Source of the DNA: a virus
Lineage: Duplodnaviria; Caudoviricetes
Length of the DNA stretch: 64,000 nucleotides
Direction: 5' to 3' (one strand)
IMG/VR virus record: IMGVR_UViG_3300033121_000954
Coordinates: 32,001 to 96,000 of that record
In this document: in pieces, positions 8,677 through 49,688 of the stretch
How positions within the stretch are numbered: the stretch's first letter is position 1
Layout of the letters: each line of letters opens with the position of its first letter
Program-made: the position numbers and the translations under genes
Notes under the pieces: model-generated
Databases searched by the model: none
What the model was told of the DNA's origin: nothing
Seen by the model: the letters and a program-made list of their open reading frames with translations, nothing else

Positions 8677-9030
8677 TTAAAATTTAAGATATTCTTCTTC
8701 TTTTAACGTTTTTAAAAAATATTTTGCAAATTCTTTGCGTTCTTCTGGATTTAGTGGTAGATCACCAAACTCTTTTTTATATGCTGGTCGGACATAGAGT
8801 GTAAAATAGTTGCCCAGTGATTTAATTGCGCCAGATTCCTGAAACGTACCTTTGTCAATAAATTTCTGGAGCGACGGAACAAACGTTTTATGCAATATAT
8901 TATATAGCCGTGAGTCATTTTCAGCATACAATATTGCCTCTTTCACGGCATCATGGTCAATAGCAGCCTCGCGGAGTATTTGTTCCACTAATGGACGCAA
9001 TAAAGTTTTAATTCTTTGTGTATTTTTCAT
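8677..9030 (-). CDS. Putative internal head protein (PLVEQILRE leader)
   Basis: Shared leader motif; GAGGT upstream. Confidence 0.6.
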   Translation of the reverse strand: MKNTQRIKTLLRPLVEQILREAAIDHDAVKEAILYAENDSRLYNILHKTFVPSLQKFIDKGTFQESGAIKSLGNYFTLYVRPAYKKEFGDLPLNPEERKEFAKYFLKTLKEEEYLKF

Positions 9031-9032
9031 TT

Positions 9033-9629
9033 TTATACCTCATAATATCTACTTAAACCAACTCCTATGTTTTCATAGCATGATTCAAGTCGTTGTTGTA
9101 AAATGTGCATTTCATTGCAAGTCTTTTCAAACATTTTATAATTTTCTCGGATTGTCTTAAAATCACGATTCATAGAAAGTGAATCAAAGTCAAATCCATT
9201 CTGTGTTTCGTTGATACTGAATCCTTCCGCAGATTCTATCAGCGAACCAACCGTCTTTGCAATTTCTTTCAATTTTTTAGAACGATATATTTCGTTTTTA
9301 AAACTTGAAAATTGCCGGAGTGATTCCAAAAAGGCATTTCGCTCTTCTTTAGAATATTTCAGTTCAGTTTCTATGAGATATTTTTTTAAATCATATTTTC
9401 GCATTTCAGTCAACCCTTTTGATTTAGCAAATGCTTTTGCACCATTTAAACTTGGATGTGATCCCCAGTCTTTAACTACATTGTTATCATTATCAATAAC
9501 ATATAAACTATATTTATCTTCATTTCCCGGATTTCTATGTGAACTTAAATCTCGCTTGGTCACAACAAATTCATTACCACCAGATGCTGGAGCACGGAAT
9601 AAAATTGATTTGTTAAGTATTTTTTTCAT
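9033..9629 (-). CDS. Hypothetical head-module protein
   Basis: ATG 9629 is coupled to the protease stop; internal LTE and LIE sites. Confidence 0.6.
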   Translation of the reverse strand: MKKILNKSILFRAPASGGNEFVVTKRDLSSHRNPGNEDKYSLYVIDNDNNVVKDWGSHPSLNGAKAFAKSKGLTEMRKYDLKKYLIETELKYSKEERNAFLESLRQFSSFKNEIYRSKKLKEIAKTVGSLIESAEGFSINETQNGFDFDSLSMNRDFKTIRENYKMFEKTCNEMHILQQRLESCYENIGVGLSRYYEV

Positions 9630-11353
9630 AGTTTTATGCAACAATTATTTGATAATTCACAAATTATATCTCGTATCAACGAATCAATTTTATTTGGTTG
9701 GGTTGTGGAAGATTTGTAATTTTCCCCAATTATCATATCCGCGTTGTGAGTGGATGGATCACTTACACAATCCGCCAAAGTTAGAAATTCAAAATCATCT
9801 TGTACTTCAACCAAATCATCTCCACCTTCCCGCAATGGAGTTACGCTGCCAAGTCCTCTACTTGATTGCCCAACTCGGTATCCCGCCAACAAAATTTCCT
9901 TTACGATATTACCGGATGGTGTATTAAGGATTTCAACATCACCACGAATTTCGTTTCCTTTCCAGTAAGCATCTTTTATTGCTTGGCAAACATTTTTCAA
10001 CGAAATTACATTTGCGTCATCCGAATTACCCGACCAAAATTGAGAATTCCCATCACGACAATAGATAATTCCATTGTCCACAGTTACACAATGTATTGTT
10101 CCGTTATAATTTACAGGTTCTACTTTTAAATATCTAAAATCAACATAAATTCCTTTAGATTGTTTAACCCATAGGCGATATAGAGGCTGTGTATTTTCTT
10201 TTTTTATAAGTCGTTCGCCAATTTTTCTATCGTTATTATGTTGAATTTTTATAACACCGGCATATCCAATTTTTAATAAAATTTCGTTTAAATCTTCTAT
10301 TAACTTTTTTGAAACAGTAAAAACCGACTTTCGGCGAGAGTAGCCAGTATGAACATCAGAGCCATCTCCTTTCATAAACCATTCAAACAACACTGATAGC
10401 AAACTACTTGATGCAGATTTTATATCTTCTGGAATAAATTTTGTATATTTGTTTCCAAGTGGCTTTAGATAATCGTATAATCGTTTATCAACAATAGAAA
10501 ATATTATATTATTTTTACGTTTTCGCTCTGTCCATTTTATTCCGGGCGACATATTTGACAACACCACGCGAAACTGTTCTGCACGAGCACCCTCATTTTG
10601 AGAAATTAGTATTTCGTAATTTCCGCGATTTTTTGTATTTCTAACACATCCTTCTGCTAAATAAAATCCTAAAAATGCAAAAAATGATTTGCTGTCAAGT
10701 ACTAAATTAGAATATTGGATTTTTCTATTTTCTGTTGTGCCTAAATAATCGGAGGTTCCGTCAATTTCCCACACATCGTGGTCTATTCCATTCCATGTGG
10801 ATGTTATTGGAATGTATCCATTTATAGATTTATTATTTTGACTGGCGGAGTATAATTCTTGAGCAGTGTATGTGACTAAATTTCCAGATGGTATTCTAAT
10901 ATGAAATTTATGATTTCCGGTGACAGTTGTATTAATATTTTTTCCATGTATATTAAACATACTGCCACTGTAATACTGATTCGTAATGGCGCTTGGATAT
11001 TGCCATTCCATATTTCCAGAAGATGGATTTAGTGTCGCAACCAAATCCGTTTCAATTGTGTCTTTTATATATTTCCAACCATTTTTAGTCAATATTTCCG
11101 TATTTTCCCAAAAACAAGTTGGATGGTCCAATTCTGAAAATGCTTTTTTTTCTCGTATTTTTTCAAAATATTCATTCAGTGCTTTATCAAGAATAGACCT
11201 GCTATAAATTCTTTTATTTCGGTTTGGAGTATCTGCGCGTTGCAACAAGACATTTCTAAGAATCAAACGACCGTCGTTACCATTCATTGATTCAATCAAT
11301 GTAGATTTCGGAACTTCAATATTTGAAATATGTTCTATAAGAAGTTGTTTCAT
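9626..11353 (-). CDS. gp21: Prohead protease (T4 gp21 family) containing an intein
   Basis: NRNKRIY, ELDHP, LNTPSG, SSRGLGS, DCVSDPS. Confidence 0.93.
   Translation of the reverse strand: MKQLLIEHISNIEVPKSTLIESMNGNDGRLILRNVLLQRADTPNRNKRIYSRSILDKALNEYFEKIREKKAFSELDHPTCFWENTEILTKNGWKYIKDTIETDLVATLNPSSGNMEWQYPSAITNQYYSGSMFNIHGKNINTTVTGNHKFHIRIPSGNLVTYTAQELYSASQNNKSINGYIPITSTWNGIDHDVWEIDGTSDYLGTTENRKIQYSNLVLDSKSFFAFLGFYLAEGCVRNTKNRGNYEILISQNEGARAEQFRVVLSNMSPGIKWTERKRKNNIIFSIVDKRLYDYLKPLGNKYTKFIPEDIKSASSSLLSVLFEWFMKGDGSDVHTGYSRRKSVFTVSKKLIEDLNEILLKIGYAGVIKIQHNNDRKIGERLIKKENTQPLYRLWVKQSKGIYVDFRYLKVEPVNYNGTIHCVTVDNGIIYCRDGNSQFWSGNSDDANVISLKNVCQAIKDAYWKGNEIRGDVEILNTPSGNIVKEILLAGYRVGQSSRGLGSVTPLREGGDDLVEVQDDFEFLTLADCVSDPSTHNADMIIGENYKSSTTQPNKIDSLIRDIICELSNNCCIKL
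10025..11116 (-). mobile_element. Intein (364 aa) with LAGLIDADG homing endonuclease
   Basis: Starts CFWENTEILTKNGWK; LGFYLAEG and FMKGDG motifs; ends YNGTIHCVTV...WSGN followed by Ser+1. Confidence 0.93.
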
Positions 11354-11583
11354 ATTTTTTTCAAATCCGTGTGAAATTGTTCTTCTAAATCATTCAATCT
11401 GCGTATATATGTATTAAGAAAATATTTCTGGTCAGAATTGATTCCTTTTATATTCCGCATCGTTTCCAGTTTACTAATTGCACCATAAAACAATTCAAAG
11501 AAGTTATCCATTTCATTATCGTAAACTGTGTTTTCGCTCAACATTACTTCCCGTATTATGGTTTTTAGTGACGAGGTATTCAT
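11350..11583 (-). CDS. Putative internal head protein
   Basis: LKTIIREVMLSE leader. Confidence 0.55.
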   Translation of the reverse strand: MNTSSLKTIIREVMLSENTVYDNEMDNFFELFYGAISKLETMRNIKGINSDQKYFLNTYIRRLNDLEEQFHTDLKKI

Positions 11584-12053
11584 ACGTTCATCTCCCTAAT
11601 TTTATTTGATAATCTTAGCAGTCGTTCATTGATTTTAGTAAAATTGCGTAAAGTTCCTTTCCAGAATACTGTTTGATCCGCACCACTCTCAACTTTTAAC
11701 CGACTTGCATGATTTATCATCTGTTCAACTTCACGAAGTTTCGCATTTATCTGGATGATATGTTCGTTTATTTTAGTTCTTTCGGTTTTACTATCATCTC
11801 GTTTAAAATCTTTATAGTTTATTTCCGAAACTCTTGTATAAATATCATCTATTTGTTTAAAAAACCTATCCGTTAAATTTATAGGCTCCGTATAAGCGCC
11901 ATCGTCTTCTGGTTCAACAACTTTTTTATTAAATGCGTATGGTGTCTGTGGTTGCCCTTCTCCACCATCCAAATTACTTGTGGTGTTGTCTTCATCAATG
12001 GGAGAGAACCGCTCATTTAACTGCTCAATGATTGCCTTGAGGGAACTATTCAT
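11580..12053 (-). CDS. Hypothetical head-module protein
   Basis: LKAIIEQLNE leader; NLDGGEG..TPYAF. Confidence 0.65.
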   Translation of the reverse strand: MNSSLKAIIEQLNERFSPIDEDNTTSNLDGGEGQPQTPYAFNKKVVEPEDDGAYTEPINLTDRFFKQIDDIYTRVSEINYKDFKRDDSKTERTKINEHIIQINAKLREVEQMINHASRLKVESGADQTVFWKGTLRNFTKINERLLRLSNKIREMNV

Positions 12054-12871
12054 TTTTGTATTTCCTCAATTAGTTCATAATATTTCAACATTCCACTCAA
12101 ATGTTCATCTTTAATGTGTTTTGCTGAAATGATGGTTTCGGTTAAATTTATTGCTTCTCTCAATTTAATTTTAGTCACATCATCATGCGTTTCATCTAAA
12201 TACGAGTTAATCTTGCTGACGATGTATTGAACCTCACTCATAATATACGATTTAAATTCCGTAGAATTATCATCTTCATTTATATATAAAGATAACAGTT
12301 TTTTCTGCCTCTGGTTCAATTGCTTATATCTATCGTTAAATTGCTCCACGATGTATCTAAACGTCAATCTACGCACATCCCCATCTTGTTCTCTCAATGC
12401 CCGCTCAATTTCAACATCTGTATTATCCACATCAACATTACCACTCAACTGTTCAGTTATGAATTTTTTACAATTCAAGTAATCAACTGGGTCGTTTACA
12501 TCTTCAAATAATTTATAAATTGAAGTTACCAGTTTGTAATTACTCAATCGCGATTCAAAAAATACCTTCAAGTCATAATGTTTTTTTAATGACTTTATCA
12601 GTTCGTATTTTTCGTGTTGCAATTTTTGCTCATTCAATCCTTTCCGACTCTGTATTGTCAATTCAATCAATTCCGCTGGATTGTGTTCTGACTTCATCAG
12701 CAATGCCTGATAGAGTTTAAGTTCTTTTAACAGTTCCGAGTCAGATTTGAAATATTTTTTGATGATCATCAACGCTGTTTGCTTAGGCGATGACCCAATT
12801 ACCTCGTGCATTACCGAACGAGATAATAATTCAAATAAAATACCAGTATTTTTAAATTTTTTATGCTTCAT
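12050..12871 (-). CDS. Conserved hypothetical protein downstream of portal
   Basis: KFKNTGILFELL N-terminus, 273 aa. Confidence 0.7.
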   Translation of the reverse strand: MKHKKFKNTGILFELLSRSVMHEVIGSSPKQTALMIIKKYFKSDSELLKELKLYQALLMKSEHNPAELIELTIQSRKGLNEQKLQHEKYELIKSLKKHYDLKVFFESRLSNYKLVTSIYKLFEDVNDPVDYLNCKKFITEQLSGNVDVDNTDVEIERALREQDGDVRRLTFRYIVEQFNDRYKQLNQRQKKLLSLYINEDDNSTEFKSYIMSEVQYIVSKINSYLDETHDDVTKIKLREAINLTETIISAKHIKDEHLSGMLKYYELIEEIQK

Positions 12872-14666
12872 TTATAACCTCGTCGTCAAATAGTTGATCT
12901 TCGCTTAATATATGTGCGGTTGGATTTCTTTTATTGAGCATTTTTAAAATTCGTTTGACTGATTCTGATTTAGCCATTTCCTTCCTTCCAGCCGGGTCAC
13001 TTCCAAAATCTTTATCTCTCGCAGTTTCAAACGAACTGGTGTGTTGATCGGGTCTTGCATTATTCACTCGTTCATCGGGTGTATAAAGTTTCTTTAAATC
13101 CTGTCCGTCCGTTGCTCTAAATTTGCTCGCTACTTGCATGGATGCAATGTCAAAAGGAGTACCCAATACCTTCCCAGTTTCTTGTGGATCATTGCCTTCA
13201 TCCTCAATTTGTTTTAACCGCAGCGCAAACTTTTTATCTTCAATAATTCGGTCAAGTTCTGCCTTCCAAACATCTTCAGTCAATCCAAATATATTTTCAT
13301 ATATATATTTGTTTGAAAATAAATTGTTTTCTTTGATACTTGCTACTAAATCCACTTTGGCAACCAGCACATCCGTCTTTTGTCGCTCAAATACTAAGGA
13401 TGGGTTGGTTAAAAATATCTCAAAATCAATTAGTTGTTCATCTTTAATGCCGTGAGTTTTTAGATGGATAATTGCAATTTTATACAGTTCAGAAACAAAT
13501 ATTTTTTGCAGTCGTTCAATAGTCCGTGCAAATCTCAAATCTAAACTGGCCAATCCAGATTTCGCGCTTCCTTCACCATCAGCACCGCCATATCCAAGAT
13601 ATTCTTTTGGAACTTTCAACCCAGCAAGTAATTTATTTTTCAGATATTCAACATCATCCAATTGTCCAGTGTTTTCAAGACCGGGCAATGTTTCAATCGT
13701 TGTTCCACTATCCCCACCTCTAACTGGCAAATAAATGTCTTCCATTTGCGACATCAGCGAAAATTTCACATTGTAATCGCCAGTGTTTGGATCAATATAT
13801 GGAGTTTTTTTAGTTTCTTGAATTATCTGCTCAACATGTGCATCAATTGCCGAGGGCGGCAAATTCCCAACATCAATTTTAAATAACCGACGTTCCGGAG
13901 AGCGCATGATTCTATGTAAAATCATCGCATCTTCCATCATCAGCAATGCTTTAAATGTCTTTCTACTGGAGTCAATGATAGATCGTCCGTATGGCAAAAA
14001 CATTTGATCGCCCATCAAACGAAAATGTGCTATTTCGTAGGCTTCAAAGTAGTTTTTACTTCTAAAATTATATTCTCCCTCATAACGAAATCTGGTTCTG
14101 GTTGGATCCTCCACAGTTCCTTCCTCTCTTATCATTAGACTTGGGTGGATTGGTACAACGTTCACAACCCCAAACTCCTCATCCAATTGCAAATACAAAA
14201 ACGCATCACCGTATTTACACATTGTCCTAATCCAACTCCACATATTAAATTCAATATTCAATATGTCGTAAAACAAATTATGTAGTAATTTTCTGATTTC
14301 ATCGTTTTCAGTTTTAATTACCAACAATTCGCCATCAATTGAAAGAGTCGTGGATTCCTCTGCATAAATATCTAAAACGCTGGAAATGATGTCGTTTGTG
14401 TCCATCATCTCATAATCCATATACATTGTACGACGTTGTGCTTCAATCTCTTCGTTTGTAAAACCACTACCATAACCAGTTACACCTGTGGTTGATCTAC
14501 CAGTCCGCCAACGTCCATTACCAGCAAGTGTGGATTGTGTTGTGCCCATTTGCTGCGATTTATTTACATCGTATGCTTTTAGACGACCGCCGGGCAATCG
14601 TTTTACAATAACATTTCGCGTAAATAATTTTGATAATATCTCTCTGTATGTACTCATAACAGCCAT
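12861..14666 (-). CDS. gp20: Portal protein, T4 gp20 family
   Basis: LPYGRS, MEDAMILHRIMRSPERRLFKIDVGN, EDIYLPVRGG, IETLPG, LKVPK. Confidence 0.95.
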   Translation of the reverse strand: MAVMSTYREILSKLFTRNVIVKRLPGGRLKAYDVNKSQQMGTTQSTLAGNGRWRTGRSTTGVTGYGSGFTNEEIEAQRRTMYMDYEMMDTNDIISSVLDIYAEESTTLSIDGELLVIKTENDEIRKLLHNLFYDILNIEFNMWSWIRTMCKYGDAFLYLQLDEEFGVVNVVPIHPSLMIREEGTVEDPTRTRFRYEGEYNFRSKNYFEAYEIAHFRLMGDQMFLPYGRSIIDSSRKTFKALLMMEDAMILHRIMRSPERRLFKIDVGNLPPSAIDAHVEQIIQETKKTPYIDPNTGDYNVKFSLMSQMEDIYLPVRGGDSGTTIETLPGLENTGQLDDVEYLKNKLLAGLKVPKEYLGYGGADGEGSAKSGLASLDLRFARTIERLQKIFVSELYKIAIIHLKTHGIKDEQLIDFEIFLTNPSLVFERQKTDVLVAKVDLVASIKENNLFSNKYIYENIFGLTEDVWKAELDRIIEDKKFALRLKQIEDEGNDPQETGKVLGTPFDIASMQVASKFRATDGQDLKKLYTPDERVNNARPDQHTSSFETARDKDFGSDPAGRKEMAKSESVKRILKMLNKRNPTAHILSEDQLFDDEVINEA

Positions 14667-16249
14667 TTTATACTTTCAGTCTGTGCTCTGACTGGCATTT
14701 CCCATTGTGGATTACTTGTCATTTTTGGACTATAAACTGAACGATGAATATTTTGGACAGATTTCTGTGTTAATTCCAACCCAACCTGATACATTCTAAG
14801 TGCAGTTTCACGAACAAATAATGCGATAGCAAAAGACATAATCAAATCATCATTGTATCCGCGAGCCGCTTGCGGTTTACCATTGATCCATTTAAACACA
14901 GTAACTTCGTTCATTAATCGTTTTGAATATACCCTTGGCAATTTCTGTCGCATATAAGTACCAAACATATCAAGCATGACTGGTCTGTTTTGTGGAGTAA
15001 TTGTAATTCCGGGTACTGTGTCTTCTTTATTTTTCAAATCGTAGTTTTTTCTGATGTGTATATCAGTGTCAAAATATGGATCATTTTTATACCCATAAAA
15101 CAAATTTTTATATCCACTATCAACTATAACTTGAATGGTTGACCAACCAATATTTTTATTGTCCAATACCAGTCTGGCATTGTTGTATTCAGTTGCGATG
15201 GAAATTAAGATATTTCCAAAAACATTTGTATCAACCTTTTCACGAAATTCGGCCACTTGCTCCATCGTTTCTAATTCAAAAACATGGAATGCCGAAAAGT
15301 CTTCACCATCCCCACGAGCAACATCCGCACTGACAATATAACTTTTGTTGTAGAGTGGGTATTTCCATATCCATAAATTGCCGCCAATTCCTCTACGCTC
15401 AACTGGGTCTTTTACCGAATTATCATTATAGTATTGGATAATTTCAGAATCAATATAAGTATGCCCAGAAGTTAAGAATTCAACATCACATTCCTGTGCA
15501 GCCTTCAGTTTTCCAAGTTGTTCATCCTGTAAATCACGCCAAGCCTGATCCCGTTCCGGATGTAAACTCCACGGTAATGATATTGGATTAAATCTACCAA
15601 GTCCGCCAGCCGCAGTTCCTTCAATTGCTTGCTGCCACAGTTGATGAAAGGTATTTCCACTTCCATTTGGCGAACTTAATAACACTGCTTTTCCGCCAGT
15701 AGCCAATGTCAGTTGGGCAGAAGTCCAAATTTCCTCCATACAATCAATGTGCGCCGCTTCATCAATTATCAATTTTGAAAGTGCTTCCGACCTACCAGCA
15801 TCCGGCGAACTTGAGACGGCTTTAATTGACGAGCCGTTGGCAAAAACTAAACTTAATTTATTATCATTTACAATCTTTCCTTTCAAGAAATTTGGAAGAA
15901 ATTCGTGCATCAATTGTACTTTTTCAACCAAATTTCGGGCAACGTCTTGTTTTGTCGCAATTACCAGTATTTTGTAATCACTATTGAACAACATACAATG
16001 AAGGGCATCCATCGCACAAAGCGTTGAAATGCCCATTTGTCGGCCCTTGCCGATTATATTGAACCGATGTTCTTTAAATGCCCTAAGTGTGTCTTCTTGA
16101 AATGGAAATAGATTGAATAAAATTTTACCCTTTATAGGATGCTGTATTTTGCAATACTTTTTGGCAAAATATACAGGGTCAACCGCACAACGTAGGAACT
16201 CCTGTTGTAACGCTTTTTTTATACTTTCTGTTTCTGGTTGTTTTGGAAT
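14654..16249 (-). CDS. gp17: Terminase large subunit (gp17 family), probable ATT start
   Basis: The frame is open 72 codons upstream of ATG 16036 and encodes DPVYF..YCKIQHP..PFQ..KGRQMGIST; also IIDEAAHI, SSPNG, ADVARG, DDLIMS. Confidence 0.93.
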   Translation of the reverse strand: MPKQPETESIKKALQQEFLRCAVDPVYFAKKYCKIQHPIKGKILFNLFPFQEDTLRAFKEHRFNIIGKGRQMGISTLCAMDALHCMLFNSDYKILVIATKQDVARNLVEKVQLMHEFLPNFLKGKIVNDNKLSLVFANGSSIKAVSSSPDAGRSEALSKLIIDEAAHIDCMEEIWTSAQLTLATGGKAVLLSSPNGSGNTFHQLWQQAIEGTAAGGLGRFNPISLPWSLHPERDQAWRDLQDEQLGKLKAAQECDVEFLTSGHTYIDSEIIQYYNDNSVKDPVERRGIGGNLWIWKYPLYNKSYIVSADVARGDGEDFSAFHVFELETMEQVAEFREKVDTNVFGNILISIATEYNNARLVLDNKNIGWSTIQVIVDSGYKNLFYGYKNDPYFDTDIHIRKNYDLKNKEDTVPGITITPQNRPVMLDMFGTYMRQKLPRVYSKRLMNEVTVFKWINGKPQAARGYNDDLIMSFAIALFVRETALRMYQVGLELTQKSVQNIHRSVYSPKMTSNPQWEMPVRAQTESIKWLL

Positions 16250-16252
16250 TAG

Positions 16253-16888
16253 TTATTTCTCCGTCGTAAATCGCTCAAGTGTTTTGTCTTTAAATTCTTG
16301 ATACGAGTTATCTATTTTTTGTAAATACGCATCCACATCATCAAATGTCCATTTCTCCACATCTCCAAATTCATTATCCACAAATCCCAAGTTTTTTAAT
16401 TCTCGCTTAATTACTTCCACTTCTTTGTCAGCATCTCTGAAAAATGCGTCTGCATTTGCTTTCATTTTGTTCAGCGCGTATTCATTAAATTCGCCCCTAA
16501 TTTTAAGTTTAGTTTCAAGCGAAATTAAACAGTCTTCACACATTCCAGTCATTCTCCGAAATTTCTCATCCAATCGTGTTGGAGATTTACAAGTACATGT
16601 TTCCTTTTGGCAATTTGGGAACGACCGCATGGATTCTCTCAATTCATCCAATGCGACTGATACACTCGGATGAAATCGGTATTTGGAACGAGTATGTTTA
16701 TTTTGTTGCCACCAACACACTGTTTCGCCAAGGGCATTTACTTCTTCCCATATTTCGCCCTCTTCTCGGGTTTTATTTTTTTCCGCTTGATATTCAGCAT
16801 CGCTAAATCCGAAAGTTTTTCTGGATTGGGTTCTGTGCTCGCCCTTGAGCATTTCATTAAGGGCTTTTACATTTTTTAGTTTAGACAT
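16253..16888 (-). CDS. Cys-containing hypothetical protein upstream of terminase
   Basis: 211 aa; CQKETCTC and CEDC. Confidence 0.7.
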   Translation of the reverse strand: MSKLKNVKALNEMLKGEHRTQSRKTFGFSDAEYQAEKNKTREEGEIWEEVNALGETVCWWQQNKHTRSKYRFHPSVSVALDELRESMRSFPNCQKETCTCKSPTRLDEKFRRMTGMCEDCLISLETKLKIRGEFNEYALNKMKANADAFFRDADKEVEVIKRELKNLGFVDNEFGDVEKWTFDDVDAYLQKIDNSYQEFKDKTLERFTTEK

Positions 16889-17123
16889 TATTATCTTGTT
16901 GTGTTACGAAATCTACAAATCGTTCATCTGGAATACCCAACAACGAAGCAAATTGTTTAATTGCTTTGAATTTATCAGTTGGTCGGTAAATATTCCGAAG
17001 CAAACTACCCATGTCTGGATTGTTTTTTATCTGTTGCATCAATAAAACTGAATTTGCAGATGCTTCTGGGGTGGGGGTTTCTAACTCCTCTTTTATCTGT
17101 TGGTACAATGGCATTAGTTTCAT
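16881..17123 (-). CDS. Putative internal head protein
   Basis: MKLMPLYQQIKE leader; GAGGA upstream. Confidence 0.55.
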   Translation of the reverse strand: MKLMPLYQQIKEELETPTPEASANSVLLMQQIKNNPDMGSLLRNIYRPTDKFKAIKQFASLLGIPDERFVDFVTQQDNNV

Positions 17124-17146: not shown

Positions 17147-19063
17147 TTATCGGGCGTAACGGAATAAACCCAAAATTTGATTTATTACTGAAAACGAACC
17201 TGTCAGTTTATACTGTTTTCCGTTTTTCCATGTGAAGACAATGCCCTCAACTGGATTCACTACTTGATTAAGTTTGTTGAATTTTTGCATATTTTTTAGA
17301 AATCTGGTTTTTACATCTTCCTCTGCGTATGCAATTTGGTCGTCAATTTTAGACAAATTGGAAATAATGTGGTTTGTCGGCCCACTTGAATTTGCCCGTA
17401 TCACACAATTTCCAAACTTGAAAATTAGGCATTGAAAATCCTCATCATTTCTCAACGATGTCACAGAATGCGCGACCGTTAAGTTGTGTTTAAGTATCAT
17501 TTTATACAACTCGTCCAACAACTTTTCACTACCTTCACACGGTTTTAATTTTATTGTTGGAGTTGGCAGCACATCATCACTATATTGGAAATTTGGACTG
17601 TATTTTTTAACGATATTGCCACTCTCATCATAATCAATCAGCCCATGCACATATATTTTTCGCGAATTTCCATAATTGATAACGTTTTGTGTGGACGGAT
17701 TGCATATTTCTGTATTTAAAAATGTTCTCCCTCCATTAAATTGGGAATGTAAATCTTGCTCGTTAATCCAGTTATTCACAACATCAAACGCATCTAAAAA
17801 TGATTTCAAAACAGCGTCTGGTTTTGTCTGCATCAAATCAATCAATTCTACCCGAGTCATGGGGGTTAATATGGTTGATTTATTTCTTGAAATTCTAACT
17901 TCTCCAGCAATACTCGTAAATTGTGCGTTTTGACCGTCTAATTTAAGCGTAGTTGGAATATCTCGGGGCGAGTTGCACACTACCTCTATCATCTCTGAAA
18001 GTGCGGCAAACGTCAAATTTTCGTCTTCAAACGGATGTATGATATGTCGTGTATATGGCTGTACGTTTTCTACTGCATAAAATTTTGTAACCGATTTGAA
18101 ATCGGGTTTCCGCATTATTGTTTTAGGAATTAAATCTAATTCTTTTTTATCACGATCAAATTTGATAATAAATGGCATGTTTATATCACTTTCCATATCC
18201 CGCAAAACGCCTTCTGAATTTGGAGACAAGTCAGCCAGTTTATCGCCATATTTCACACTAACTTTCCGAAATAAATTCCTCAGTTCGTCTGTTGAAATAG
18301 GTGTCCCATTTCTTGGATCATTTAGTCGCTGGAAGAAATGTGTGCCAGCATACAAATTTTGAAATTCAATATCAATACCAAATTCCTTAAACAGTCTATC
18401 CGCATACTGCTCAATTCGCATCAGTTGCGTTTTAGTGATTGTATTTCCCTCGTTTAAAGAATTTACAATTGACTCAGCAACATAATCAATTTCAGATTTA
18501 AATTTGTGTTTGAACATGGAATGTATTTGCGGATCATACCAACCCATCAATTCCGTAAATTCAGACTCAGTTGAATTTGGAAGTAATTTGCGCAACAACG
18601 TACCGTTAAGTTCCTCACCATTCACTTCAACTGATTTATGAGGAACAACAAGTACATAACCAGATTTTGAAAACGGTTCAAGTTCAAGTTGACCACTATA
18701 TGGCTTAAAATATGACGAACTACCATCCGATTTGATATACTGGATTCTACCAGTATCTTTTTCGCCATACACGAAAATAGCCGCCACTGTGTTTGGATTA
18801 AAATGGTCAGTCAGTTCAGTTGATTTATATGTGGATGATACACAACAAATTTGCGTTTTTGGTATTCCATATTTTAAAATTACGGACAGTTTTTCCTTGT
18901 AATTTAATGGATTCTTTTCAACATCGTGCGTTGAATTTGTTGTAGTTATGAATACATTATTTTTTCCAAATTTATCGCACAAAGAACGATATACTTGATA
19001 ATGATGACGACCAAACACTTGAAATCTACCAGTGTAAATTACTATTTTAGTATCTGCTTTCAT
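17147..19063 (-). CDS. Multidomain protein: cytidylyltransferase-like N-terminus and a KxDG ligase-like C-terminal domain
   Basis: YTGRFQVFGRHH, NPLNY.EK, YGEKD; HFFQRLNDPRN; HPFED..LKLDG..EGIVF..YKLTGSF. Confidence 0.65.
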   Translation of the reverse strand: MKADTKIVIYTGRFQVFGRHHYQVYRSLCDKFGKNNVFITTTNSTHDVEKNPLNYKEKLSVILKYGIPKTQICCVSSTYKSTELTDHFNPNTVAAIFVYGEKDTGRIQYIKSDGSSSYFKPYSGQLELEPFSKSGYVLVVPHKSVEVNGEELNGTLLRKLLPNSTESEFTELMGWYDPQIHSMFKHKFKSEIDYVAESIVNSLNEGNTITKTQLMRIEQYADRLFKEFGIDIEFQNLYAGTHFFQRLNDPRNGTPISTDELRNLFRKVSVKYGDKLADLSPNSEGVLRDMESDINMPFIIKFDRDKKELDLIPKTIMRKPDFKSVTKFYAVENVQPYTRHIIHPFEDENLTFAALSEMIEVVCNSPRDIPTTLKLDGQNAQFTSIAGEVRISRNKSTILTPMTRVELIDLMQTKPDAVLKSFLDAFDVVNNWINEQDLHSQFNGGRTFLNTEICNPSTQNVINYGNSRKIYVHGLIDYDESGNIVKKYSPNFQYSDDVLPTPTIKLKPCEGSEKLLDELYKMILKHNLTVAHSVTSLRNDEDFQCLIFKFGNCVIRANSSGPTNHIISNLSKIDDQIAYAEEDVKTRFLKNMQKFNKLNQVVNPVEGIVFTWKNGKQYKLTGSFSVINQILGLFRYAR

Positions 19064-21386
19064 ATATTATTGCTTCACAATGTGAAACTACATTTGCATC
19101 CCAATTGAAGGATGATGTAGATGTTATATTATAATTTACCCGCAAAAATTCATCTGCAATAGAAGCTTTCCCAATAGTTAACCAAGAATCTAAGTTTGTC
19201 TTTGAGGTTGGACCATTTCCAAATGTACCAATTGCGTTGACCGACGAACCGGACAATGAAACAGTGTTGAATATAAGAGGTCGGCCATTATTGTCAAATC
19301 TGCTGACTATTGCGCGACCCTGTTGTGTAAATGCCCAATTGTATGTATCAGTAGGTGTTGAATATGAACCAGTTTTTCCAAAAATGGTCGTTTGTACTGT
19401 ATATGCAATCGCGGCATTGAAAAAACTTCCAGTATAAATATCAAAATTTATCGCTCTAAATATAGGAAATCGTATAGTACCACCTCCACCACCACTCGTT
19501 CCGATATTATTAAATTGTATAGTTGAAGTTCTAATTTGATTAACTTTATAACCAAAATCGTCTCTCATTATGGATTCTGAGTGATAAAGAACTTCTGGTT
19601 TATTTCCTTGAAATACGACACCTTTTAATAAATTTTCCTTATTGGCAAGTTCCCCGACTGAATTTTTATATTGAACTTTGATGAACAATTCGGATTTTGT
19701 TTCCACGTCAGTCAATGGAATTTGAACTCTGGTTTGGTTACTGTTGAATCCGGGTTGGTGGATTGGATAGATGGACATGTCACTGATATTCCAACTACCA
19801 GTCGTTACCAAAACCAACGGCCTAAAAGTTCCCACGTCGTTCGTTTTAAACTCAAACGTATTTTCAGACAATGATCCATTCCTTGCCTCCACAGTACCAA
19901 TATATGTACCTATATTCGTATAATTAGTTTGTATAGTGTCCGTTTTTGGACGTTCTCCCAAAACTACAATTGGACTTGAACCAGTTATATATATATCAAG
20001 TTTTCCAGTTCCAGTATTTTTACTGCTAAATTCAAGTGTGTAAGATGTATTTGCACTGGAAGTTATACCATACTGGACACTCGGGACGATATAAAATTCG
20101 CCACTTCCAGACACCCGGACAGAATCGGATAAGTTGCCATTATCTATTTCAGCACGTCCACTACCACCCACATTCCAATATCGATGAAAATCATTAAAAT
20201 CATTGCCACGGATGGCTACATTTCTAAAGTTTCCAATAGGCTTTTCTATCAATCCACGCTCAGCATCAAACAACGTTGCGTTCGGATCAGTAAACAAGTT
20301 CGTTCTACTCAATTTAAACGAACCAATATTGCGAAATTCGCCAAACGAGTTTACTGGTTTGTATGAAACATCAATTGATGATAGCACCCCAAATTCTGGC
20401 TCCAACCCACTTATATCAAACGTAGCAAATGATTGTGTTGTAGCACTTTGACTGACTGATTGGTATTGATAAAACGAACAAGTAAAATTTGTTTGGTTGA
20501 AAAATCTATCAGCGGAAAATGTTCGGGTTATTGTTTTATAAAACGGCGGATAGACTTTGATAGAACTACTATTGATTACCTCAACGATGGATGCTGTATA
20601 AAATATCGGTTCGTTGTATGTAATATCGGCGGGGAGGTTTACATTTATATCGTTCAGTTCAATTTTTCCACCTTTCATACTTGAACTGAAGTAGAAATTT
20701 TTGGCGGTTAATATTGAAAAATTTGTATAGGACGGGATGATTACATCGTTATTCGTCGCACCATCCCCATTAACAGACGGATTGGTAGATATACTGGAAT
20801 CGGTTGCTCTCGTTTCAACATTGAATGTATCTGGAATAAATTGCATTGGAATGATGCCGCCAATCGTAGAAAATGAACCACTGGAAGTTCTGATTTCAGT
20901 TAAACGGCTGACTCCAGTTGAAATGGCGACTGGTTGTAATTTTTCTTTGAAAGTCACAACTGGCGTGTTTTTTAAAACTACTTTCTCAGTAACTTCGATC
21001 GTCGGATTTACACCAACTTCAAATGTTGCCAAATAGTTTGAAGTATTTACCAGTTCCGTATCAGAACCTTTTAAAGTCCCGGCAATGTAAATTTTCGCTA
21101 TTCCAATCGGAGTATCATTATAAATATAAACTACAATATTACGAGTATTATCATCGTTCACTACACCACTAATCTCATAATATATTGGCTTTCCAAGACT
21201 GTCAAGAATATCAATAAAAATATCAGAACCCTTTAAAAGCTTGTTGGGAGAAATATTTAGCGTAAATCTATTTTTACCCAAATTAAAAATAGTGGGGAAC
21301 TTAGCATCAATGATGGTGCTAAATCCCCGCTCAACTTTCAAAAAGTTCCAACCTTTTATTCCATATTCTGATTTAATTTTTTTCAT
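19047..21386 (-). CDS. Large hypothetical protein, probably structural
   Basis: 779 aa, S/T/G/N-rich beta-type composition. Confidence 0.6.
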   Translation of the reverse strand: MKKIKSEYGIKGWNFLKVERGFSTIIDAKFPTIFNLGKNRFTLNISPNKLLKGSDIFIDILDSLGKPIYYEISGVVNDDNTRNIVVYIYNDTPIGIAKIYIAGTLKGSDTELVNTSNYLATFEVGVNPTIEVTEKVVLKNTPVVTFKEKLQPVAISTGVSRLTEIRTSSGSFSTIGGIIPMQFIPDTFNVETRATDSSISTNPSVNGDGATNNDVIIPSYTNFSILTAKNFYFSSSMKGGKIELNDINVNLPADITYNEPIFYTASIVEVINSSSIKVYPPFYKTITRTFSADRFFNQTNFTCSFYQYQSVSQSATTQSFATFDISGLEPEFGVLSSIDVSYKPVNSFGEFRNIGSFKLSRTNLFTDPNATLFDAERGLIEKPIGNFRNVAIRGNDFNDFHRYWNVGGSGRAEIDNGNLSDSVRVSGSGEFYIVPSVQYGITSSANTSYTLEFSSKNTGTGKLDIYITGSSPIVVLGERPKTDTIQTNYTNIGTYIGTVEARNGSLSENTFEFKTNDVGTFRPLVLVTTGSWNISDMSIYPIHQPGFNSNQTRVQIPLTDVETKSELFIKVQYKNSVGELANKENLLKGVVFQGNKPEVLYHSESIMRDDFGYKVNQIRTSTIQFNNIGTSGGGGGTIRFPIFRAINFDIYTGSFFNAAIAYTVQTTIFGKTGSYSTPTDTYNWAFTQQGRAIVSRFDNNGRPLIFNTVSLSGSSVNAIGTFGNGPTSKTNLDSWLTIGKASIADEFLRVNYNITSTSSFNWDANVVSHCEAIIYESRY

Positions 21387-33728: not shown

Positions 33729-34004
33729 TTATCTCTTTTTATTTATAACATTTTTTACGTTTCGGGCAATGGTGGAAATTTCCATTATCATGTCCTGTCG
33801 CATTAAATCTTCGCTCAGAAATCTAATTTCTCTGTTGACAATCTCGTCCAATTTATTTTGAATTTCCAATAGTTTATTGATTAAACCCTGTTGTGGATGT
33901 TCTGGTTCTTCTATTACCGATACGGCTTTAAAATGATCTATGTTGTCGGATGATGGAACGTAATTGATTAGTTGTATGAATCGTTGTTTTCTGGATAGTT
34001 TCAT
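33729..34004 (-). CDS. Hypothetical protein
   Basis: 91 aa, coupled to the upstream gene. Confidence 0.5.
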   Translation of the reverse strand: MKLSRKQRFIQLINYVPSSDNIDHFKAVSVIEEPEHPQQGLINKLLEIQNKLDEIVNREIRFLSEDLMRQDMIMEISTIARNVKNVINKKR

Positions 34005-40936: not shown

Positions 40937-41197
40937 TCAGTTATAAGTTTTGCCGTCAGGTGATTGTCCGCCTTTTAGCCAACTTTTAACATCAGCATAC
41001 CAAGGCATAGTTCTAAACTCATTTATATGCTTGTTCGCACCAAATTTTCCAACCCATTTAAGATTATTAACCATTTCAAAGTGTGTTGAATCGTCACCCT
41101 TTGTTAGATACCAAGTGCCATTCTCGTCGGTAATATTGATAGTCATGGACGTATCATTTTCCATAAGAATTTCTTTAATTATTTGTTTTAAGTTCAT
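40937..41197 (-). CDS. Putative internal head protein
   Basis: MNLKQIIKEILME leader; AGGAG upstream. Confidence 0.55.
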   Translation of the reverse strand: MNLKQIIKEILMENDTSMTINITDENGTWYLTKGDDSTHFEMVNNLKWVGKFGANKHINEFRTMPWYADVKSWLKGGQSPDGKTYN

Positions 41198-41208: not shown

Positions 41209-41260
41209 CAAAGGTAATGGTTAAAATTTAATTGTCAAGATCATTAACAATTTGTTATGA
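41209..41260 (-). promoter_or_regulatory. Bacteroidota-type promoter with TGTTAA element
   Basis: TGTTAATGAT-CTTG-N19-TACCTTTG. Confidence 0.7.
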
Positions 41261-41734
41261 TATTATTTTTATCTGATTTTTATTAAAAACGACATAATTG
41301 TTTGCAACGATATTACCAGCAAAAATATCTCCATACGAATCTTTAATGTCGTGCATTATAATTCCATCCAAATCATCGTCAACAAATCCGTTATACCAAT
41401 CATAGTAACCCAATTCCTCACGCATTTCATCGTCAATACCGTATTTTTTTATATCATCCGATATACCCTTAATCAACTTTGCAAATTGAGACGGGACATA
41501 GTGCTTTCCCATGAAAGTAATTGTTGATCCTCCATCAAAATCTACTTTAAGTGGATTGTCTAAATCTAACTTGGCCTTTATAATTATATTGCCATACGAC
41601 TTAGCGACTTTAATATCGTCAGAAAAAAATATAGGCTCGGAATCATTAAACGAACTAAATTTGGTATTAGTACCATGATAAACTATCAAACTGTCTTGTA
41701 TCTCGTTTAATAGTGGGGCTAATTTCATATTCAT
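41255..41734 (-). CDS. Putative ART-fold protein (polyvalent-protein type) with leader
   Basis: VYHGT..F..F, IFFS...A.SY, NPL, DGII, YVVF...QIK; MKLAPLLNE. Confidence 0.6.
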   Translation of the reverse strand: MNMKLAPLLNEIQDSLIVYHGTNTKFSSFNDSEPIFFSDDIKVAKSYGNIIIKAKLDLDNPLKVDFDGGSTITFMGKHYVPSQFAKLIKGISDDIKKYGIDDEMREELGYYDWYNGFVDDDLDGIIMHDIKDSYGDIFAGNIVANNYVVFNKNQIKIIS

Positions 41735-42598: not shown

Positions 42599-42961
42599 TT
42601 ATTTAATCAAGTGTTCCACTTTTTTCCACACAGCGATTGCGGCTTTTTGATTTAATCCAATCCTGATGACTTTTATCGGTGTGGTCGGTTGTGTAATTTT
42701 GTAAGCAAGTTGACGGTGATGTCCATCAACTATATAATTATCAATTGAAATAACAATTGGCGGCATTGGTTTACCTTGCCGGATTTCCTTTGCAATGCGG
42801 ATGACTTTTTCTTTATCAACTTGATGCTGAGAGTGGTACAATTCAGATGGAAGTACATTAACAACCTTCACCCCAATGTTGTTTCGTTTTAGAACATTTA
42901 TCGCATCAGTTAGTTCATTACCAGCAATTTGTGGCATGACGTATCGGTTTACTTTGGTCAT
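42599..42961 (-). CDS. ParB/sulfiredoxin-like N-terminal domain protein
   Basis: PPIVIS.DNYIVDGHHR..A. Confidence 0.75.
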   Translation of the reverse strand: MTKVNRYVMPQIAGNELTDAINVLKRNNIGVKVVNVLPSELYHSQHQVDKEKVIRIAKEIRQGKPMPPIVISIDNYIVDGHHRQLAYKITQPTTPIKVIRIGLNQKAAIAVWKKVEHLIK

Positions 42962-43332
42962 TTTGGCTCTCTATACATCAATTCTGATATTGTAAAATCT
43001 TTATTTCTTCCCTTATTTAATACAAATCCAAACCGTTTATAAAATTCAATGAGTCTGGATTGGCTGGTTGTGCCATGTCGTTTGTCAATCAGTCCGGGTG
43101 TCAATACGATTCTCTTTTTTAATCTATCGGCGTATTCACACAATTCATTCAACACTTTAGTCCCAACCCCATTTCCTTGATTTTCCTTGCCGACAATTAT
43201 CGTATCTAATTTTATATAATCTTTATGTTCATATACATGAAACGCCTTTAGACCATATTTTGTCTCTATCGCATTTGCCCAAGATTCTATACTTTCGGAT
43301 AAGATTTCTTTTATTAAATTTCGTATTGTCAT
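42958..43332 (-). CDS. GNAT acetyltransferase with leader (start revised to ATG 43332)
   Basis: QGNGVG acetyl-CoA motif, LIEFYKRFGF; MTIRNLIKEILSE. Confidence 0.78.
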   Translation of the reverse strand: MTIRNLIKEILSESIESWANAIETKYGLKAFHVYEHKDYIKLDTIIVGKENQGNGVGTKVLNELCEYADRLKKRIVLTPGLIDKRHGTTSQSRLIEFYKRFGFVLNKGRNKDFTISELMYREPK

Positions 43333-44464: not shown

Positions 44465-44474
44465 TTATAATTCC

Positions 44475-46340: not shown

Positions 46341-46349
46341 TTATCGTTC

Positions 46350-46823: not shown

Positions 46824-47002
46824 TATGTGTCCTTAATCATTTTTTTGATAGTATCAATATACCAAATACAAAATCCAGCAACTCCAAAATAAAATACATC
46901 AGTTATTTCAAAATAAATGAGTGATTTTCCTATTTGGAGTGCCATGAATCCAGTAAGTACCGCAGTTATAAACCATGAATAAAATATTGATAGTTTACTC
47001 AT
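46823..47002 (-). CDS. Small two-TM protein (59 aa, not in ORF track)
   Basis: Manual translation MSKLSIFYSWFITAVLTGF...; coupled to both neighbours. Confidence 0.5.
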   Translation of the reverse strand: MSKLSIFYSWFITAVLTGFMALQIGKSLIYFEITDVFYFGVAGFCIWYIDTIKKMIKDT

Positions 47003-48006
47003 TTTCTATCTCGTAATTCTTTTGTTTTATCAATAACGTATCTCTTGATGGATTCTCCATCAGATAATTCTTTTACTTTTTTTAGTATATCTTCAATGGT
47101 TTGTGCAGTTTCAATGGTCTCGGGAAGTGCTAAATATGGCATCCCAGGAACACCTCGGTGATTTTGGTATAAATTTACAGCCCAATAAGGAGTTTTCATA
47201 AATGTTCCTCGCGTAAACACCAACGAAATGTTGTCCATTAATTTTATTCGGGCATCTTCCCCATTCCAACTAAGTCCTAACTTGTTGGCTAAATAAGTGG
47301 TCATATCCTGCTTTTTGAAGACCTTGCTCACCGAAGTTGTTTTGAATTTTTCCAATTTAACTTTTGGAAAGGCGATTTCTGGCTTTGTAAAAATATCGTG
47401 GTTTTGGGTTCTGGTATAATTGGTTTGGGACAATTTGAGTTTTTTACTGTTGAAGAACCCATACGCAACCACGACAAGCGGGTAACTTATATTACCACTC
47501 CCGCTTCCAAGTGAAGTTGTTTGCGTTACATTGCTCAGCAAACATGAGAACTCAATTAAAAATAATATCCCACGATCACCATTTGAAAATTCTGCCGCCA
47601 GCGAAATATACTCCGCATAGTCCGACGCAGATTTTGGAGATGTGCGGACGATTCTGGATGTAAATGGCTCGTTGTAAACAGATTTAAAATACGATTCAAA
47701 CGCACTTAAATTAAGTTTGGATTTTAGTTGCTCCAATACTTCAAATGCGAGTTTTATATTTTTCTCGGCAGTCTGTGCTCTGTTAGCAGATGATGTCGTT
47801 GCCAATGTTTGTTTTTCTAAAAATTCCTTTGCCGCAATTACGTCTCGCATCGCTTCATCACTTCCTCCACGATCTGGATGAGACTTGATTGACGCTTTGC
47901 GAAATGCCGTTTTTATGTTCTCTGGAGTCAGTTCATTCTTAGATAATCCGAGCACTGCCAACGCACGATCAAACGTAATTTCCAATAAAAGTTGTTTTAA
48001 TTTCAT
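46999..48006 (-). CDS. J-domain (DnaJ-like) protein with leader
   Basis: VLGL..IKTAFRK...SHPDRGG; MKLKQLLLE. Confidence 0.8.
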   Translation of the reverse strand: MKLKQLLLEITFDRALAVLGLSKNELTPENIKTAFRKASIKSHPDRGGSDEAMRDVIAAKEFLEKQTLATTSSANRAQTAEKNIKLAFEVLEQLKSKLNLSAFESYFKSVYNEPFTSRIVRTSPKSASDYAEYISLAAEFSNGDRGILFLIEFSCLLSNVTQTTSLGSGSGNISYPLVVVAYGFFNSKKLKLSQTNYTRTQNHDIFTKPEIAFPKVKLEKFKTTSVSKVFKKQDMTTYLANKLGLSWNGEDARIKLMDNISLVFTRGTFMKTPYWAVNLYQNHRGVPGMPYLALPETIETAQTIEDILKKVKELSDGESIKRYVIDKTKELRDRK

Positions 48007-48008
48007 AT

Positions 48009-48521
48009 TTAACCTACCTTATTTAACCAACTCATATCTTCGTCATCACCAGATGAATGCCCCATGTCTGAATCATCAGCAATCATAGCAAAGATTTTTG
48101 ATTTTACTGCCGAATTTGGTTGAGATTTGAACATTCCACTATAATCGCGATTCATCGCTTCCATCACACCTTTAACGCCCGGATTTGAAATGTTGGGACG
48201 GCTGCCGTCCAACCCAGAAGTTACAACAATAGGAGTTTGTTCATCTATATATCCAAGTCGCGAAGCAATATCTTGTTGTTCCGATATTGGCTCACATTCA
48301 GACAGAATTGAGTTTAACATCGGGTCGTTTGAATATTTAATTCCCCGTTTGGGCTGTTCAAAAACCAAATTTTTGCGAAAGTTCTTTTGAACTTCCACTA
48401 AATTGTTTGGTTTTGCTTGTGGTGTTTTCATTTCGTTCAATAACTGAGCCTTCAACTGTTTGAACTCTTCCCTAACAGCCTTTTGAATGATCTCAGTTAA
48501 CATTTTTTGGAGTTTTGTCAT
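48009..48521 (-). CDS. Hypothetical protein (start revised to ATG 48521)
   Basis: AGGAG upstream; DPMLNSIL.E and AMNRDYS motifs. Confidence 0.6.
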   Translation of the reverse strand: MTKLQKMLTEIIQKAVREEFKQLKAQLLNEMKTPQAKPNNLVEVQKNFRKNLVFEQPKRGIKYSNDPMLNSILSECEPISEQQDIASRLGYIDEQTPIVVTSGLDGSRPNISNPGVKGVMEAMNRDYSGMFKSQPNSAVKSKIFAMIADDSDMGHSSGDDEDMSWLNKVG

Positions 48522-48659
48522 TCTACGTTCTCTCCTATAAATTTTGCGATACCAACATGCAATTTTCTTGCCATTGAGTGAATTCATATTGGTCAGCGAC
48601 ATGCTGCCAGTCTGTATCTTTGGAACACCTTTCCAAGTATTCTTGATATATAATATTCA

Positions 48660-48887
48660 TCATATTTTAATTCGTTGTAAGAATAGTTCTTTCGTTTCTT
48701 CGTATTCAACCTCATTCCAGATTTCAAACATGGACCAATAATTACCAGACCTGAGAAGGTTGACCGTATTTAATTCAGTACGAACAAACTTTTTGATTTG
48801 TTCTAAATCAATTTGATCGTAAAATATATCAAACATCTGTTTGAACATGTGCGACCCTTCAAAAAATGAAATCCGAATACGTTTCAT
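48660..48887 (-). CDS. Hypothetical early protein
   Basis: Directly downstream of the promoter at 48908-48959. Confidence 0.6.
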   Translation of the reverse strand: MKRIRISFFEGSHMFKQMFDIFYDQIDLEQIKKFVRTELNTVNLLRSGNYWSMFEIWNEVEYEETKELFLQRIKI

Positions 48888-48907
48888 GTGTTGTAAATTT
48901 TATACAA

Positions 48908-48959
48908 CAAAGGTAATCACATTTTAAATACCGTACAAATCATTAACACATCGTTAAAT
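48908..48959 (-). promoter_or_regulatory. Bacteroidota-type promoter with TGTTAA repeat
   Basis: TTTAA-N5-TGTTAATGA-TTTG-N20-TACCTTTG. Confidence 0.8.
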
Positions 48960-49688
48960 ACTAAAAGTTCTAACTACTTCAATTGCGGTTTTTGGAATCG
49001 TATTTAGTGTAAAGTATCCATGCCCTTTACTATTGGGATCCTTATAAATTTGAAAATAATTTGGGATTAATCGTGTACTTATTTTCAAAATGGTAAATTG
49101 TCCATCTCTACTTTTTTTCCATGCGTTTGGATTGTTTCTTATCATCAACTCCACTTCATCATCACTTCTGCCCAAATAAACTCTTGGTGGGTGATTGGAT
49201 GTTACAGAGTGCGATTTAGGTATCAACCCCAAAGTCATAATTTTCAGGGCACGTTCTCGTGAAGTAATGTGATATAAAAATTGCGGTATTTTCTCAACTC
49301 TAATATCATACTTGGCTTCAAATTTTATCATTACAGTATCAAATTCTGGATATCGCTCATTGAAATAAACTTCCTCGTATTTACCTTTGTCCTTAATCTG
49401 GTTGTTTACCATGTAATAAACGTAAGATGGAATCCACCCCAAATTATTTGCAAGTGCAATTATTTCATCGGGTGTACGTCTATTATCCGAATCAATCAAA
49501 ACGTGAAATACATTTTTATCTTTATATTGGTCACATTCAACTTTATGATTTTTTAAAATTGATATAGTTTTGTCAAGAGGCCATGTCTTCAACAAGCCTT
49601 CGTTTAACAAATTTTCCTCTATAAATACATCATATTCGTCGTCATCGTCTATCATATTGATAGTATCAATTATACTGCGAATTTTCAT
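48954..49688 (-). CDS. Protein with C-terminal KptA/ART-like NAD-binding fold
   Basis: LYHIT....I...GL.P, RVYL, IP..AI. Confidence 0.55.
   Translation of the reverse strand: MKIRSIIDTINMIDDDDEYDVFIEENLLNEGLLKTWPLDKTISILKNHKVECDQYKDKNVFHVLIDSDNRRTPDEIIALANNLGWIPSYVYYMVNNQIKDKGKYEEVYFNERYPEFDTVMIKFEAKYDIRVEKIPQFLYHITSRERALKIMTLGLIPKSHSVTSNHPPRVYLGRSDDEVELMIRNNPNAWKKSRDGQFTILKISTRLIPNYFQIYKDPNSKGHGYFTLNTIPKTAIEVVRTFSI

Follow-up and report, generated by a model that had tools for sequence, protein, structure and literature searches.

The sequence analysed here, referred to throughout as the window, is a stretch of 64,000 bp (bases 32001-96000) from an IMG/VR virus record of 127 kb (IMGVR_UViG_3300033121_000954) that was judged 69% complete. 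Nearly all of its genes are carried on the minus strand, including the head genes and all of the tagged genes described below, and positions are given in window coordinates unless genome coordinates are stated. Sixteen open reading frames (ORFs) of the window, lettered A to P in order of position, and four further ORFs of the same record (genome 14592-14858, 15424-15696, 18307-18546, and 19596-19820) begin with a short leader peptide that closes on a hydrophobic residue, any residue, and glutamate (h-x-E). A first-pass annotation had listed the sixteen leaders of the window, and all of them are present at the starts that it gave, on the minus strand. We describe these leaders, the proteins behind them, and their counterparts in related phages, and we propose that they are capsid-targeting propeptides of the kind known from T4.

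The Head Module

We regard the phage as a distant member of the T4 superfamily because its head genes follow the T4 order and include those for a gp23-type capsid protein, a gp20-type portal, and an S77 protease. From high to low coordinates, the head operon comprises the portal gene (12861-14666; Portal_T4, 232 bits), which is its first gene, an ORF of 273 amino acids (aa), two small ORFs (11580-12053 and 11350-11583, our ORFs C and B), the gene for the gp21-family prohead protease (9626-11353; Peptidase_S77, PF03420, 71.6 bits against a cut-off of 27), three small ORFs, a gene for a scaffold-like protein of 316 aa, and the gene for the gp23-type major capsid protein (556 aa; 5319-6989). The last is 56% identical to its counterpart in Microcystis phage Mel-JY01, 51% to that in Flavobacterium phage immuto, and 31% to that in T4. 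A megablast search of GenBank phages with 24 kb of the sequence returned no match. The host is probably a member of the Bacteroidota, given the presence of host-type promoters of the form TTTGG ... TATCTTTG, the Flavobacterium phage among the relatives, and a related contig that carries a Por_Secre_tail gene.

The Tagged ORFs

Three tagged ORFs belong to the head operon. ORF A (117 aa; 8677-9030), between the protease and the scaffold-like gene, has a 21-aa leader in which a basic stretch precedes PLVEQILRE, and it matches no Pfam or PHROG family. ORF B (77 aa; 11350-11583), whose stop overlaps the protease start, stands in the position of T4 gp67, and ORF C (157 aa; 11580-12053) stands in that of gp68; ORF C is a head-operon protein kept in 24 related loci, and its leader contains an internal h-h-E that is conserved among orthologues.

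ORF D (80 aa; 16881-17123), which has a leader-bearing orthologue in the relative G001, adjoins an NMNAT-like gene and the terminase gene, whereas ORF E (270 aa, with a GTG start; 25477-26289) and ORF F (26714-26990) adjoin a primase gene and a GIY-YIG gene. The first-pass annotation had described the tagged genes as slotted between conserved structural genes, a description that fits part of the set and does not fit these three. Further along the window lie ORF G (88 aa, 12-aa leader; 29969-30235), ORF H (92 aa; 31866-32144), and ORF I (191 aa, with a body of no assigned function; 34001-34576), the latter two with long leaders of 23 aa; ORF J (159 aa; 36467-36946), whose 10-aa leader has the spacing of the T4 IPIII tag; ORF K (86 aa; 40937-41197); ORF L (159 aa, 11-aa leader; 41255-41734); ORF M (124 aa, 13-aa leader; 42958-43332); and ORF N (335 aa, 9-aa leader; 46999-48006). 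ORF O (170 aa; 48009-48521) and ORF P (244 aa; 48954-49688) had been noted as carrying looser versions of the leader. For ORF P the assignment gained strength, in that its bipartite leader of about 30 aa ends in an invariant L-N-E/G site (N29-E30-G31 in 8 homologues) and the fold of the body begins near residue 34; ORF O, the weakest member, is recognised by three successive h-x-E sites and by nothing further.

An internal start is needed for the leader to be N-terminal in ORFs G, M, O, and P. Upstream of the first three, at 6-10 nt, there is a ribosome-binding site of the AGGA/GGAG type, and none is found at ORF P. Sites of this type, at the same distance, also precede the late-gene starts of most of the tagged ORFs, although hosts of the Bacteroidota generally rely little on them. 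In ORF F, the ATG is in one frame and the leader and body in another, shifted by one base at a run of ten A (26962-26971); the record holds an uninterrupted paralogue of this ORF at genome 14592-14858. The frameshift could be a homopolymer assembly error, the mark of a pseudogene, or a slippage site.

As had been claimed on first inspection, the bodies behind the leaders are unrelated to one another by BLASTP, with the exception of ORFs H and I (39% identity over 82 aa, leader included), which are probable paralogues, and of a weak match between ORFs M and P.

Properties of the Leader

A profile built from 16 leaders was searched against the six-frame ORFs of the 127-kb record. Fifteen matches reached 8 bits or more, compared with 0.2 in shuffled sequences, and all fifteen lie on the coding strand directly after a start codon; two of them, ORF F and a leader at an internal methionine (genome 18546), were outside the training set. 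When whole leader subgroups were left out in cross-validation, ORFs A, G, H, I, J, and K, together with two copies outside the window, still scored above every non-member N-terminus, and ORFs L and N were borderline.

The leaders fall into two length classes, one of 9-15 aa and one of 21-25 aa with a basic N-terminal stretch. Anchored on the closing glutamate (position 0, occupancy 1.0), the 20 leaders are hydrophobic at -6, -3, and -2 with occupancies of 0.95, 0.75, and 0.90, respectively, and often at -7 and -10 as well. This register is the face of an amphipathic helix, and in both of the AlphaFold models the leader forms a helix that precedes the folded body. The tags of T4 IPII/III, Alt, and gp22, as read from NC_000866, share it. 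According to Mullaney and Black (1996; summarised in PMC9026906), the targeting of T4 IPIII depends on residues 4 and 7, which correspond to -6 and -3, and its processing on residues 8 and 10 (-2 and 0).

The leader profile of this genome does not transfer to relatives (two matches in 925 kb). Because their tags are differently worded, we adopted a pattern derived from T4 alone, h..hh.E with the glutamate within the first 26 residues. It fits 20 of the 119 N-termini in the virion half of the record versus 5.0% of internal windows (p=1.2e-5); in the early-type region (window 50 kb onward, with small genes behind host-type promoters) it fits 5 of 87, a rate no different from that of internal windows (p=0.44). 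The first-pass annotation had held that a motif equally common in early genes would refute its interpretation; the motif is not so distributed, and the sequence-level tests proposed there all came out in favour of that interpretation, which we regard as partly supported. When applied to T4 itself, the pattern recovered IPII, IPIII, gp68, gp24, and Alt, and in the early region, as background, it fitted 8 of 91 ORFs. Over 56 related head-gene loci, which are not independent of one another, it is found in 14.4% of N-termini versus 6.3% of internal windows (p=3e-16).

A motif finder of our own, based on expectation-maximization, ranked the leader first among 11-mers in this genome only, and in other genomes it overfitted. 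A tag dialect specific to each genome was also considered and rejected, the similarity of tags within and between genomes being indistinguishable (p=0.46). T4 ORF 61.1 (54 aa; NC_000866, locus L085 of our set, 18966-19130) has a ten-residue N-terminus very close to the IPII/IPIII tag, ending in I-K-E.

Prohead Protease and Capsid Maturation

A T4-type protease is encoded in the head operon, which favours the interpretation offered in the first-pass annotation. The catalytic His and Ser of the gp21-family protease are conserved, and its own N-terminus is a 7-residue version of the leader that ends in L-I-E, as in T4 gp21. The T4 gp23 maturation site, L-T-E/A, aligns column for column with V-T-E60/A in the capsid protein (codon 6810-6812), and three relatives have V-T-E, L-R-E, and V-S-E in the same alignment, which suggests that maturation of the capsid protein takes place at a site like that of T4 gp23, [LV]-x-E/A.

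The protease gene is split directly after the catalytic His (ELDHP/T-C...N/S) by an insert of 364 aa (nt 10025-11116) that has the sequence features of a class 1 intein with a LAGLIDADG endonuclease: C80, the terminal N443, the +1 nucleophile S444, and a LAGLIDADG_3 match of 31.9 bits. Its penultimate residue is Gly, not His. Intein-free alleles of the protease occur in two related loci (L006 and L014) and in phage immuto.

A leader-like helix is also found inside a 408-aa protein (28746-29972, minus strand), where it spans residues 218-228 and ends in L-N-E. The orthologue in the related 82-kb contig L082 keeps this internal site as L-T-E, followed by V-x-V-x-D-P. The L-N-E may be an internal site of protease processing that joins two modules.

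Cargo Proteins

The first-pass annotation had named a zincin, a GNAT, a J-domain, and three folds like that of ADP-ribosyltransferase (ART) among the bodies. Three of these were confirmed at the level of Pfam matches: ORF L as an ART-PolyVal ADP-ribosyltransferase (PF18760, 42.9 bits against a cut-off of 31.2), ORF M as a GNAT acetyltransferase (Acetyltransf_7, 31.0 against 27; Acetyltransf_1, 27.7 against 20.7), and ORF N as a J-domain protein (DnaJ, PF00226, 29.1 bits against 27.8), with the domain starting at residue 17 and HPD present in the sequence. A fourth, ORF P, has no Pfam match. A Foldseek search with its body matched KptA/Tpt1 structures (E=2.6e-6, probability 1.0), and H140 and R169 are invariant in its family, so that by fold match it can be assigned a Tpt1/KptA-like fold of the ART superfamily.

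The remaining two assignments are held at lower strength. ORF E is a likely gluzincin metallopeptidase: HELGH and the downstream E240/E244 are invariant in 28 homologues, the structure model has a pLDDT of 90, and the top Foldseek matches are all gluzincins, though weak ones (E 0.015, TM 0.36); no Pfam match lies above cut-off, and M10 appears only at E=0.086. ORF J is a possible ADP-ribosyltransferase of the R-S-E type, its match to ADPrib_exo_Tox (16.7 bits) falling below cut-off.

The other dozen tagged proteins, of 6-19 kDa without the leader, had no match to anything. There was no PHROG match for 19 of 20 proteins, a sequence search of the PDB with four cargo proteins gave nothing usable, and the ESM Atlas pointed weakly to a zincin for one protein and yielded no match for a second.

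Leaders and Cargo in Related Phages

In each of the 44 full-length homologues of ORF L, all of which carry the ART-PolyVal domain, the conserved body is preceded by h-x-E in an N-terminal extension that is 5-33 aa long; the residue at P3 is Leu or Ile in 41 cases. Among homologues of the zincin, the leader is present in 13 of 21 close ones and in none of 17 distant ones, some of which are on contigs of several hundred kb. Flavobacterium phage immuto 3-5A (MW353176), a cultured relative, carries leader-like N-termini at 4241, 5318, 6245, and 16412 of locus L003.

Contig L082 is collinear with the window from 21 to 35 kb, with nine backbone genes at 38-71% identity and a tenth that matches over its N-terminal 73 residues only. 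Eight of its nine tagged ORFs have no homologue in our record, and the ninth, an ART, stands in a different slot. Cargo swapping behind a constant kind of leader, which the first-pass annotation had anticipated, can therefore be seen directly in this comparison. Two further relatives, whose capsid proteins are 84% and 66% identical to that of this phage, share only two of the 20 tagged proteins with it.

One slot of L082, from a fibre gene to the primase gene (8597-10959), holds four tagged ORFs and a GIY-YIG homing-type gene; the corresponding slot here holds the zincin gene, a GIY-YIG gene, and the frameshifted ORF F. These arrangements hint that homing endonucleases help to move cargo cassettes.

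A Proposed Packaging Mechanism and Its Alternatives

The reading that we favour, with a probability of roughly 0.6, is that the leaders are capsid-targeting propeptides of the T4 kind, removed by the prohead protease, and that the tagged proteins comprise core components as well as injected enzymes. The leader would act as a short N-terminal amphipathic helix that binds the scaffolding core during prohead assembly; the shell would then close over the core, so that the tagged protein ends inside the head, and the gp21-family protease would cut the leader after its closing hydrophobic-x-Glu, as for the capsid protein. Tagged proteins encoded outside the head operon would be present in the virion, carried in the head, and would be ejected into the host with the DNA, like T4 Alt and the T4 internal proteins. 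The carried set would comprise the three ART-fold enzymes, the GNAT, the J-protein, the zincin, and about ten small proteins of no assigned function.

The first-pass annotation had treated all of the tagged proteins as effectors. For the three of the head operon this does not hold up well; going by their position alone, they are more likely to be components of the prohead core, with T4 gp67 and gp68 as positional analogues. The remaining tagged proteins probably are carried in the head and ejected, as had been supposed.

Several results weigh against this reading or narrow it. ORFs B, C, D, E, and M were recognised in cross-validation only inside their own subgroups; the firm core of the set is about eleven leaders, to which these five and two loose ones may be added. 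At a background of 5-9% per ORF, the T4-derived pattern may have admitted a few members by chance. The protease must be spliced to be active, since the intein splits it right after its catalytic His. Most of the tagged genes are found among tail and baseplate genes, not among head genes. No T4-type late promoter (TATAAATA) was found upstream of the tagged genes. Host-type promoters, which mark the early region, stand directly ahead of ORF K and ahead of the 48887-46999 gene group, which probably covers ORFs O and N. Three tagged ORFs would thus be behind host-type promoters, which weakens the case for late co-expression with the head genes. The cargo also has no homology to T4 IPI-III, Alt, gp67, gp68, or gp22 (no BLASTP match below E=0.03), and for this reason we consider the system an analogue of that of T4 by mechanism and not a set of orthologues.

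Host-type promoters (TTTGG ... TA..TTTG) with a TGTTAATGAT element at the -33 box occur on the minus strand at 3153, 41230, 48915, and 82194 in window numbering. One of them is the promoter directly ahead of ORF K, and another is the one ahead of the 48887-46999 group.

The location of most tagged genes among baseplate and fibre genes, the three ORFs behind host-type promoters, and the generic nature of an amphipathic helix as a binding element would also fit a helix that targets or assembles its protein elsewhere, at the inner membrane, in the tail or baseplate, or on a shared chaperone such as the phage J-protein, with the glutamate being no cleavage site at all. We think this unlikely, although it is the strongest of the alternatives. 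The closing h-x-E is kept in all 44 ART homologues despite leaders that range from 5 to 33 aa; the hydrophobic register is that of the T4 tag, and the N-terminus of the protease and the tags of T4 core proteins obey the same rule; and the tag also heads ORFs within the head operon itself.

Somewhat less probable still is that the shared N-termini are leftovers of gene insertion, 5' ends copied along with their ribosome-binding sites when cassettes recombined, and that the peptide has no function. Turnover of cargo in fixed slots, the homing-type GIY-YIG genes beside two slots, and the close paralogy of some leaders would be expected of such a process. The nucleotide sequences speak otherwise. 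Codon differences between leaders are mostly synonymous (11 synonymous versus 2 non-synonymous in one set, 22 versus 4 in another), and nothing besides the ribosome-binding site is conserved upstream of the ATG of the tagged ORFs, both of which argue that the signal is the peptide and not the DNA. In addition, h-x-E has been kept over leaders of varied length and wording in many metagenomic relatives. A tag that serves as the recognition sequence of a modifying enzyme, such as a radical-SAM partner, is very improbable, since no radical-SAM domain was found in the 127-kb record (69% complete) by a search that detected its positive controls, and the tag fits the protease rule instead.

Other Features of the Window

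Three further observations concern genes outside the tagged set. The first 66 or so residues of the large terminase ORF (16036-16253) lie outside the ATG/GTG/TTG call; they are found in frame upstream, right after the stop of the preceding 211-aa ORF and with no canonical start codon, and translation would begin either at a rare start codon or by coupling to the upstream ORF. At 21386-24493 there is a single protein of 1035 aa with a Metallophos nuclease domain and an SMC/AAA_23 ATPase, which is the T4 gp47 and gp46 pair fused in one chain; its orthologue in L082 is of similar length (1048 aa). The early-type region encodes, at 58982-62236, a fused restriction-modification enzyme of 1084 aa that resembles Eco57I/MmeI, with a methylase, a helicase spacer, and a TaqI-like specificity domain.

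Relation to Known Systems and Significance

The closest known system is the capsid-targeting sequence of T4, carried by IPI, IPII, IPIII, and Alt and removed by gp21 (PMC9026906, PMC3012670). T4 reviews describe diverse internal proteins that share only this sequence (PMC3012670, PMC9026906), and the tag has been suggested to be a general protein-loading route of T4-like phages (PMC9026906). Both systems combine a short N-terminal tag, hydrophobic at -6, -3, and -2 and ending in (L/I)-x-E, with a gp21-family protease, a gp23-type capsid protein that has its maturation site in common, and unrelated cargo that varies between related phages; the parallel extends to an ART encoded beside baseplate genes, which in T4 is the packaged Alt (PMC5512222). 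They differ in that there are about 20 tagged ORFs here versus roughly 5-8 in T4, in two classes of leader length, with cargo not homologous to that of T4 and richer in enzymes (three ART folds, a GNAT, a J-domain, and a zincin), the genes being spread over slots of the virion module in a phage whose host is probably a member of the Bacteroidota. The resemblance to the T4 core proteins gp67, gp68, and gp22 lies in the small ORFs B and C between portal and protease and ORF A after it, in the same gene order, and in N-terminal h-x-E helices like those of gp68 and gp22; there is no sequence similarity between the two sets.

In the giant phages phiKZ and SPN3US, many head-internal proteins likewise owe their maturation to cleavage after Glu by a gp21-related protease, but their propeptides are mostly 80-130 aa long, dissimilar, and of the form small-residue-x-E, whereas those described here are short, alike, and of the T4 type (PMC5694885). 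The polyvalent proteins (Iyer et al. 2017, PMC5512222) share with this phage the signature ART-PolyVal domain, the occurrence of zincin peptidases, and the predicted purpose of delivering enzymes with the DNA. In those proteins the domains are fused in one chain, whereas here each is encoded as a small protein of its own behind its own tag, and the zincin has no match to a Pfam model from polyvalent proteins. The earlier description of this arsenal as a polyvalent protein split into cassettes is best kept as an analogy, one drawn from ART-PolyVal only.

Since the principle has been established for T4 and suggested for its relatives, the gain here is one of scale and reach and not of concept: a distant lineage, about twenty tagged genes per genome, richer enzymes, two length classes of leader, and slot-wise turnover. 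We suggest tentatively, at slightly less than even odds, that in a large clade of uncultured T4-like phages, whose hosts are probably Bacteroidota, the whole injected set of about 20 proteins per genome is marked by a tag recognisable from sequence, is encoded in fixed slots of the virion module with fast turnover, and includes separate tagged ART, zincin, and acetyltransferase proteins instead of polyvalent fusions. Should the tags function as they do in T4, it would be possible to predict from sequence alone the proteins that uncultured phages bring into the host with the DNA. Such a set would be expected to be rich in counter-defence and host-takeover functions, because it would act before any phage gene is expressed, and, as most of the cargo belongs to no known family, the tag would yield a short ranked list of uncharacterised proteins that are worth testing. 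The tag could also serve as a packaging handle for the engineering of Bacteroidota phages, as the T4 tag did for T4. If the clade-wide reading is true, the early-acting proteins by which thousands of uncultured phages take over the host and counter its defences could be listed from the tag alone.

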